In this document: piece by piece, positions 35,843-37,738 of the stretch | How the letters are laid out: each line of letters opens with the position of its first letter | Numbering within the stretch: position 1 is the stretch's first letter | Source of the DNA: a virus | UHGV virus genome: UHGV-1491546 | Direction: 5' to 3' (one strand) | DNA: 39,185 nucleotides | Notes under the pieces: generated by a model | What the model was told of the DNA's origin: nothing | The model's input: the letters and a program-made list of their open reading frames with translations, nothing else | Databases searched by the model: none | Translations under genes and position numbers: made by a program

Positions 35843-37738
35843 ATGTCAGATATCACCGCAAATGTTGTGGTAAGCATGCCTTCGCAACTCTTCACTATGG
35901 CGCGTTCTTTTAAAGCGGTTGCCAATGGCAAAATTTATATCGGAAAAATTGACACTGACCCGGTAAATCCAGAAAACCAGATCCAGGTTTATGTGGAGAA
36001 CGAAGATGGCTCTCATGTTCCTGTTTCGCAACCAATCATCATTAACGCTGCTGGATATCCGGTATATAACGGACAGATTGCCAAATTCGTAACTGTGCAG
36101 AATCATTCCATGACTGTGTATGATGCTTATGGTTCGCAGCAGTTCTATTTTCCGAATGTGTTGAAGTATGACCCTGACCAATTAAGACAGGAGCTATCTA
36201 AGCAGACTGATGGTTATTTTTTTAACCTTCCTCAAGGTGGTGTACTACATGATGCAATAAAGTATGCAACACCAGAAATGTATATCAATACATCTTCAGA
36301 TATTACATCTGCTATACAAAGCGCATTTGACAATGGAAATGTGATTGATATGTCAGGTAGAGACTGGACTCTTGAGAGAACAATCCATGTCGGTGATGGC
36401 ACTGAAATAAAGTTAGGCGCATCAACAATTACATGTCAACTTGGTTCTAAACCTGCTTTTGACTTTAGAGGAACAGATAAAGGACTCTTGGTCACAGGAG
36501 GTAAGTTTATTGGTAATTGCTCTGCAGTATTTTATTTCCAAGGGACTACTGCTTTCCCTTCTCAATCAGGTCACTATGCAAGAAAAATAAGAATATACGG
36601 CACAGATGCTACTTCAGATACGGATGAGATAATTGATTTCATCTATATGAAGGATGCTGTAAGGCAAGTTTTTATTGATTCATGTTATGCATATGTAAAA
36701 AATGGCATTACTGCAAGCGGGAAATGTGTGGAGGTGAAAGTCCAAAAAAGCATATTCAACTCAGGAACTTCCGATCAAAGTTCTTCTAGGATAAGTCTAA
36801 ATTCACCGTCAGGAGCAAGTTATTACAACGAAGGTTGGCATTTTAGTGATTGTACAATTGATGGAGTTGGAAAATCATTTAATGTTACCGATATATATTC
36901 GTTAACCATCAATGGAGGATTTATCGGTGGTGAGGTTGCGTTTGGACAGCCAATAACAACACATTGCCGTGAGATCGTACTCGGTGGTGGATTAATCATG
37001 AAAGGGCGTGTTACTTTCACGCCAACCGTACAATATGACTACAGGGCCAACATATCTCCTTCTCTTATGTTTGGTAATGGTGGAGTTGGAAACGTGGTCC
37101 TTAATGCAGGCGCTTCAGGCATCAACGTTAGCACAAAACTTGAAAGTTCTGGTGTTTCAGGAGGAACTGGCGTTATTGTTAATGAAGGATGTTCTAATGT
37201 TAACGTTGACCTGAGTGCTGATAATACGTATGAAAGACTGGCGTCATTCAATGGTTACGGACCAAGGTGTTCCGCTTTGATACGTAACTACATGGGAAGC
37301 TCTCACCCAATTTATACAGAGCGACCATTAAAGATTATATCATCGCCTGTCACTGACGACGCTGGTTCTCTGCAGGTTATGAGTTTTGTAAATATACCGG
37401 CAGGAAGCTATATTGTTGGTGCTGTTATGTCTGAGGTGAAAGTGACTGCACCAAAAGGTTCTAGAGGGAAAATTTGTCTTACCATTTCAGTGAGTGGATT
37501 AACAGGCACATCTTCACAGGCGCTTATTGTAAATATTCCTGCCGGAATGGTTACCCCATCCGGTTTAGGTTGGGCTTCAAATGTTATTAGACCTCAGTTT
37601 GCGGCTGGAATAATGAGTATTGAAATACCATTTTATACAACCACAGACATTGCAGAATCCTCATTATCTGTATCTAATTTCTCAGGAAATACAGCAATTG
37701 TTGGACTAAACTCTTACATTGGATATTTTTTGATATGA
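35843..37738 (+). CDS. tailspike (P22 gp9-like head-binding N-terminus, divergent receptor-binding domain)
   Basis: From ATG 35843 (GGAG SD): [43 protein letters not shown]... matches recalled P22 gp9 for about 110 residues; the remaining ~520 residues are not recognisably P22. Confidence 0.85.

Follow-up and report, generated by a model that had tools for sequence, protein, structure and literature searches.

The window analysed here, the whole 39,185-nucleotide (nt) stretch of the virus genome UHGV-1491546, carries on its + strand at 35843..37738 a gene of 631 codons plus stop. It is part of a P22-like (Lederbergvirus-type) prophage inserted at argW of Escherichia coli and codes for the tailspike. 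The encoded protein is identical to RefSeq WP_404312488.1 (631 amino acids, aa), labelled 'phage head-binding domain-containing protein'. We read it as a mosaic P22-type tailspike, in which a conserved head-binding domain is joined to a receptor-binding module acting as an endoglycosidase specific for the E. coli O147 O-antigen, and we assign this whole reading a probability of about 0.6.

The first roughly 110 residues had been assigned, in a sequence-only reading of this DNA, to a head-binding domain of the P22 gp9 type. This assignment was confirmed by the Pfam Head_binding profile PF09008, which matched residues 1-113 with E=4.5e-66 over the whole model. The virion-anchor domain so delimited (35843..36181, + strand) ends in the conserved motif YDPDQ. 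Searching solved structures returned Sf6 gp14 (E=4.5e-65) and P22 gp9 (E=4e-52) as top matches, with 103/113 (91%) and 85/113 (75%) identical residues respectively over positions 1-113; over residues 114-122, identity to these tailspikes is 2/9. The same domain, 75-91% identical, is found in the P22-like tailspikes as a group (P22 gp9, Sf6 gp14, HK620 gp9, the CUS-3 endosialidase and epsilon34). Among 50,697 phage records searched with megablast, 28 matched the gene, over nt 1 to ~350 only, and these include HK620, Sf101, CUS-3 and epsilon34. Similarly, the first ~350 nt were matched by 1086 of 5426 complete E. coli genomes, and the full length by only two. The head-binding part was poorly modelled in our structure prediction (predicted local distance difference test, pLDDT, below 60, with three alignment sequences carrying the domain), and its identity is taken from sequence homology.

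Beyond this domain, similarity is lost abruptly and to a degree far beyond chance. DNA similarity to other P22-like tailspikes stops at 36186-36200; in an alignment with E. coli UMNF18, whose tailspike is also P22-like, the nucleotide sequences remain close up to gene nt 344 (codon 115) and no longer match by nt 358. At the protein level, resemblance to the receptor-binding family begins at about residue 117, where ELSK... is aligned with ELAK... of epsilon15-type spikes. A recombination junction had been proposed near codon 110-120, and these borders place it at codons 115-119. The junction and linker correspond to residues 114-143 (36182..36271, + strand; pLDDT below 50). This gene shares with the P22-like tailspikes named above a junction just past YDPDQ, a location that closes the late operon, beyond immI, and a C-terminal parallel beta-helix, but those tailspikes have no detectable sequence similarity to its receptor-binding domain, and the probable substrate, O147, differs from theirs.

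To the right, the window again resembles UMNF18 and two P22-like contigs of IMG/VR from 37822 onwards, approximately at the int stop codon. Because similarity ends on the left at the head-binding DNA and restarts at int, the variable unit is a 1.63-kb cassette (36193..37821, + strand), delimited by blastn against UMNF18 (L011) and the IMG/VR contigs L012 and L013, and composed of the receptor-binding domain and the 76-nt spacer separating the tailspike and int stop codons. Its flanks are 88-97% conserved in P22-like prophages with unrelated or distant receptor-binding domains, and homologous recombination within the conserved head-binding and int flanks could swap such cassettes. The window as a whole has a guanine-plus-cytosine (GC) content of 47.1%, and the cassette one of 37.5-40.6%. 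When the gene was compared with that of strain ETEC1738, 45 nucleotide differences were counted, 34 of them within nt 1-320 and 11 across the 1576 nt that follow; this concentration indicates that one receptor-binding domain is carried on different anchor alleles. Both the GC contrast and the uneven distribution of differences fit with horizontal movement of the cassette.

We also considered that the C-terminal part could be a P22 gp9 endorhamnosidase which has diverged vertically, without recombination. The overall fold class is indeed shared, as described below, but this explanation is refuted: identity falls from 75-91% to background within 5 codons, the GC content of the cassette is distinct, P22 lies outside the closer structural neighbours, and the same domain is present on epsilon15-type, T7-type, TSP1/Gp66-type and other anchors. 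Using phmmer, no homology was found to gp9 residues ~120-666, catalytic residues included, nor was there any DNA match past nt 350, so that the C-terminal domain does not align with P22 gp9 throughout.

To describe the family of the receptor-binding domain, 1.84 billion representative proteins were searched with HMMER, and 95 clusters were recovered at E<=1e-3, 57 of them at E<=1e-30. The match usually extends from about residue 150 of the full protein to the C-terminus, and the N-terminal parts vary greatly in length. Anchors found in the family are of the TSP1/Gp66 type (PF18668, 8 members), the T7 tail-fibre type (PF03906, 3 members), the endosialidase N-extension type (PF12218, 3 members), the tail-collar fibre type (PF12571), Calx-beta, the epsilon15/phiV10 type and the P22 head-binding type (PF09008; P0014, L012 and L013). 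The domain is therefore a module whose family, though small, is attached to a wide range of phage anchors. In single-protein searches, GTDB species representatives yielded no related loci and IMG/VR only two, L012 and L013, at 36% identity. The L012 tailspike (3578-5506) and that of L013 have the same head-binding domain as the window and a receptor-binding domain 36% identical to it, nearer to the type of Escherichia phage PAS61; from these combinations it follows that the family has been captured by P22-like phages more than once. The closest relatives, with 61% and 71% aa identity, are two tailspikes of epsilon15-like prophages recovered from Logan (P0003 on L006 and P0002 on L005, respectively). 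These have an N-terminal anchor of the epsilon15/phiV10 type with lysis genes adjoining, as opposed to the P22-type anchor present here. None of the 5426 complete E. coli genomes was matched when the P0003-type receptor-binding domain was used as a megablast query.

Comparison of the window gene with P0002 revealed a 464-nt patch (gene nt 430-893; 36272..36735, + strand) which is identical to the P0002 gene (L005 10730-11193) at all but 2 positions, and these two mismatches fall at positions that are also polymorphic among alleles of the window type. Outside the patch, P0002 is 95-100% identical to P0003, itself only ~65% identical to the window. The patch records a recent gene conversion within the beta-helix, in which tailspikes from two phage genera, P22-like and epsilon15-like, took part, and it offers a clear example of recombination below the level of the domain. 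In the modular O-antigen receptor-binding proteins of E. coli phages, the anchor is kept by the genus and the domain is exchanged across genera (PMC10408124), and the scheme of Pas et al. 2023 (PMC10408124) follows the same modular principle as the gene studied here. The architecture is thus a classic P22-family mosaic, and a general account of domain exchange among E. coli phage genera already exists (PMC10408124); the distinctive element here is an uncharacterised receptor-binding subtype lying outside curated libraries.

The structure was modelled as a monomer with AlphaFold2 from an 18-sequence alignment. Residues 141-631 were mostly predicted with pLDDT above 90, and the C-terminal part adopts in the model a right-handed parallel beta-helix, the fold for which the sequence-only reading had proposed a structure prediction. 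This predicted helix of stacked short strands spans residues ~144-500 (36272..37342, + strand) and has at its N-terminus a degenerate form of the PF12708-type cap motif; it is followed by an all-beta domain at residues ~505-631 (37355..37735, + strand; modelled secondary structure, pLDDT above 90), in which Q559, P566, N612 and G615 are conserved. The top Foldseek matches were the Sf6, HK620 and CBA120 tailspikes. Structural neighbours from phages comprise the phi29 gp12 appendage, Pseudomonas phage phi297 gp61, Klebsiella phage K64-1 S2-4, CBA120 TSP3 and the Det7 tailspike, and those from outside phages the beta-helix enzymes AlgE4, GH87 and GH110; the P22 tailspike was absent from the closer neighbours. 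A Foldseek search of BFVD retrieved only generic pectate-lyase-superfamily and tailspike models, with template modelling scores of at most 0.4. According to the model, the fold class is that of the P22, Sf6 and HK620 tailspikes, and the sequence family is different. The claim that this part does not resemble the P22 endorhamnosidase thus holds for the sequence, in which phmmer detected no real identity past about residue 120, but not for the fold class, which is shared.

None of the curated libraries covers the domain. Pfam and NCBIfam gave no match to the receptor-binding domain, and PHROGs gave none at E<=0.1 when it was searched alone. A match to phrog_8280 ('colanic acid degradation') extending to residue 358 in the full-length scan was discarded as driven by the anchor. 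The window protein has no Pfam match to PF12708 (Pectate-lyase-3 / RHGA-epimerase-like), which is matched by 10 of 54 relatives through the N-terminal cap motif; the family profile matches the cap motif FGAxGDGxxDDTxAIQ of GH55, phi29 gp12 and Phi92 gp150, and the motif is degenerate in the window. The domain had been called unrecognised, which is correct as regards curated families but not as regards the literature, since the tailspikes of PAS61 and phage 26, 32-33% identical to it, are published (PMC11522302).

These two tailspikes, from PAS61 (vB_EcoP_PAS61, a Uetakevirus) and the Kagunavirus phage 26, are the nearest named relatives, with a homologous receptor-binding domain over ~96% of its length; like the window protein, they are beta-helix tailspikes on an anchor specific to the taxon. 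Identity over this domain is 33% for phage 26 and 32% for PAS61 (31.6-33.1%), which lies just above the identity of at least 30% used to define a subtype (PMC10408124). Their anchors are of the epsilon15 type and a siphovirus type, in contrast to the P22 type found here. On an O146:H21 host the plaques of PAS61 are surrounded by halos, and the spike of this phage is annotated as a putative O146 binder (PMC11522302). As the hosts of the window domain among complete genomes are O147, the serogroup is not common to both, and the window domain probably combines the fold family of the PAS61 spike with a different specificity.

Among 72 family members, 18-71% identical to the window protein, residues E297, E330, D340, D350, K294 and D460 are 89-96% conserved. 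Using an AlphaFold model, the authors of the PAS61 study proposed in silico two acidic clusters as active sites (PMC11522302). E297, E330 and D340 align with E404, E437 and D447 of the first cluster; of the second, E491 and D573 are kept as E377 and D460, whereas E521 and D541 are replaced by S407 and N428. Family conservation and the PAS61 model make E297 and D340 the likely catalytic carboxylates, and E330 and D350 lie close to them. The candidate codons lie at 36731..36892 on the + strand (E297, 36731-36733; E330, 36830-36832; D340, 36860-36862; D350, 36890-36892).

The substrate was approached through the hosts. Of the 5426 complete E. coli genomes, only 2 contain DNA of the receptor-binding domain even at blastn sensitivity: JX2, from wastewater in China, and ETEC1738, from a pig in Belgium. 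In both, the galF-gnd cluster comprises rfbBDAC, wzx and wzy of the 'O147 family' and two glycosyltransferases. An 'O147 family' wzy is present in 7 of the 5426 genomes, which gives P ~1.4e-6 for two independent draws. The draws look independent because the chromosomal flanks of JX2 and ETEC1738 are 2-5% different and their prophages have little in common upstream of the tailspike; the O-clusters are 99.2% and the receptor-binding domains 99.3% identical. The domain thus occurs in O147 hosts in 2/2 complete genomes, from divergent lineages and prophages, in a small sample, and the O147 link is statistically strong and thinly sampled. Both clusters have annotated defects, an internal stop in wzzB of JX2 and a frameshift in wzy of ETEC1738, which may have been selected by phages or may be errors of sequencing.

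P22 targets the Salmonella O-antigen, and the different O-antigen specificity suggested for this tailspike by the sequence-only reading is supported by the host association, both complete genomes being O147. As a rule, the tailspike subtype of a prophage tracks the O-serogroup of its host in Lederberg- and Uetakeviruses (PMC10408124). In the abstract of that work, O147 is not among the 14 serogroups given a subtype (PMC10408124), and nothing relevant on an O147 tailspike or depolymerase was found in the searchable literature. The O147 repeat is ->2)-a-L-Rha-(1->2)-a-L-Rha-(1->4)-b-D-GalA-(1->3)-b-D-GalNAc-(1-> (Rha, rhamnose; GalA, galacturonic acid; GalNAc, N-acetylgalactosamine) and, apart from O-acetylation, is that of Shigella flexneri serotype 6 (PMC4206707).

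From the host association, the E. coli O147 O-antigen is the most likely substrate, and an O147-specific endoglycosidase appears to be the best reading of the domain. By analogy with P22, Sf6 and HK620, residues 1-113 would anchor the trimeric spike to the tail hub, and six trimeric spikes would bind and cleave the host O-polysaccharide as an endoglycosidase; such cleavage would let the virion work down to the outer membrane.

Several observations weigh against this reading. The O147 link comes from two complete genomes. The window protein is below threshold for all glycosidase and lyase families in Pfam, NCBIfam and PHROG. UMNF18 is also O147, yet the P22-like prophage occupying its argW site carries an unrelated receptor-binding domain; a domain of this UMNF18 type is also present in O141:H4 strain P13-6 and five other genomes, so the tailspike type of a prophage and the O-type of its host do not correspond in a strictly one-to-one manner. 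The UMNF18 tailspike (L011 4001-5995) is 664 aa long, with the same head-binding domain through residue 117; its receptor-binding domain was considered as O147-specific and dropped, on account of its occurrence in O141:H4 and other non-O147 genomes. Finally, the O4-substituted GalA of the proposed substrate makes a lyase mechanism chemically possible.

The receptor could be another surface polysaccharide co-occurring with O147, such as a K-antigen, an O-antigen capsule or colanic acid, which we regard as rather improbable. Besides the small number of O147 genomes, the UMNF18 domain shared with O141:H4 strains illustrates that tailspike type can depart from O-type, Pas et al. report subtypes extending over several serogroups and propose a capsule receptor for them (PMC10408124), and many capsule depolymerases are found among the fold relatives. 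This is countered by the divergence of the two hosts, whose O147 clusters are nevertheless 99.2% identical. Colanic acid, near-universal in E. coli, would not explain a distribution of 2/5426, and the PHROG 'colanic acid' match beyond the anchor is spurious.

Alternatively, O147 could be targeted by a polysaccharide lyase (PL) rather than a hydrolase, the Rha-(1->4)-GalA linkage being cut by beta-elimination. The mechanism is possible because the GalA is 4-O-substituted and because lyases and epimerases with a beta-helix rank equally well among the structural neighbours. However, the hydrolase tailspikes of Sf6, HK620 and CBA120 (TSP3) score equally well, fold alone does not decide the mechanism, no PL-family sequence match was obtained, and the same conserved residues are found across a family tied to other serogroups, as in the putative O146 binder. 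A lyase is thus unlikely, though it deserves some weight, and we retain the O147-specific endoglycosidase.

The gene itself is intact. Twelve contigs encode exactly this tailspike protein, their genes differing by 0-2 silent nucleotides, and in every case it lies in a P22-like prophage beside IntS at argW; its 90% identity cluster has 98 members. These data, together with the full late operon of the window, make it very improbable that the spike is a non-functional, decaying remnant of a defective prophage. Decay of such prophages does occur: L016 and L018 (Logan SRR31598758 and SRR28431694), which are deleted derivatives of this prophage, retain an intact tailspike and int, and the related prophage of UMNF18 has a frameshifted int and ejection gene. 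The whole lysis and morphogenesis region is absent from L016 and L018, where a C-terminal piece of the gp16-type ejection gene comes directly after the replication O gene. The 99.3% identity of the receptor-binding domain, compared with a head-binding part ~10% different, points instead to selection and transfer.

As to the start of the gene, the open reading frame (ORF) list gives a + strand frame of 650 codons at 35786-37738, within which the tailspike coding sequence is 35843-37738. The ATG at 35843 (MSDITANVV...) is the correct start: a Shine-Dalgarno GGAG read from the sequence (35832..35835, + strand) precedes it by 7 nt, the RefSeq protein has the same start, and the ATG at 35786 falls within the T-tail of an intrinsic terminator, for which reason it was rejected as spurious. 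This terminator (35761..35788, + strand) follows the antirepressor gene ant, and consists of a stem at 35761-35780, GACCCAGC-TTCG-GCTGGGTT, plus a T-run.

The surroundings are those of a P22-type prophage. Matches to PHROGs identified the needle knob, ejection proteins, Arc/Mnt and Ant, and an IntS-type integrase also adjoins. The P22-type late operon is complete in the window, with the tailspike as its last gene and gp10, the needle, the ejection proteins and immI (Mnt/Arc/Ant) upstream; RefSeq annotation shows the same prophage type in JX2 and ETEC1738, and the Pfam families of neighbouring genes agree with this context. The integrase gene (37815..39005, - strand; RefSeq-type start at 38969, 384 aa) is convergent with the tailspike gene and lies between it and the attachment site. 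The window terminates within argW, of which the 3' 55 nt of the tRNA-Arg (39131..39185, - strand) mark the prophage-chromosome junction by comparison with E. coli JX2. P22 and Sf6 have O-antigen-modifying genes (gtrABC and oac, respectively), whereas here none is found between the tailspike and int. The tail needle (28100-28948) has an Sf6-type C-terminal knob domain (phrog_1030), unlike the knobless needle of the P22 type. Two small genes are located between the gp16-type ejection gene and mnt, where P22 has sieA. They encode a 109-aa protein (33385-33714, - strand; phrog_8100) and a 150-aa protein with a lipoprotein-like signal, LSGC (33800-34252, + strand; phrog_6823), both of which are possible superinfection-exclusion candidates.

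Mosaic P22-type tailspikes are textbook material, and the architecture as such teaches nothing new. We tentatively suggest, as a possibility short of even odds, that the cassette is the first depolymerase specific for O147 and S. flexneri serotype 6, perhaps a lyase, and that it is being actively exchanged, down to 0.46-kb patches within the beta-helix, among P22-like and epsilon15-like prophages with a common host serogroup. The practical value of the analysis is a concrete specificity prediction. O147 is a classical serogroup of porcine enterotoxigenic E. coli, and a depolymerase of O147/serotype 6, if validated, would be useful for typing, for glycan engineering and as an anti-virulence enzyme.

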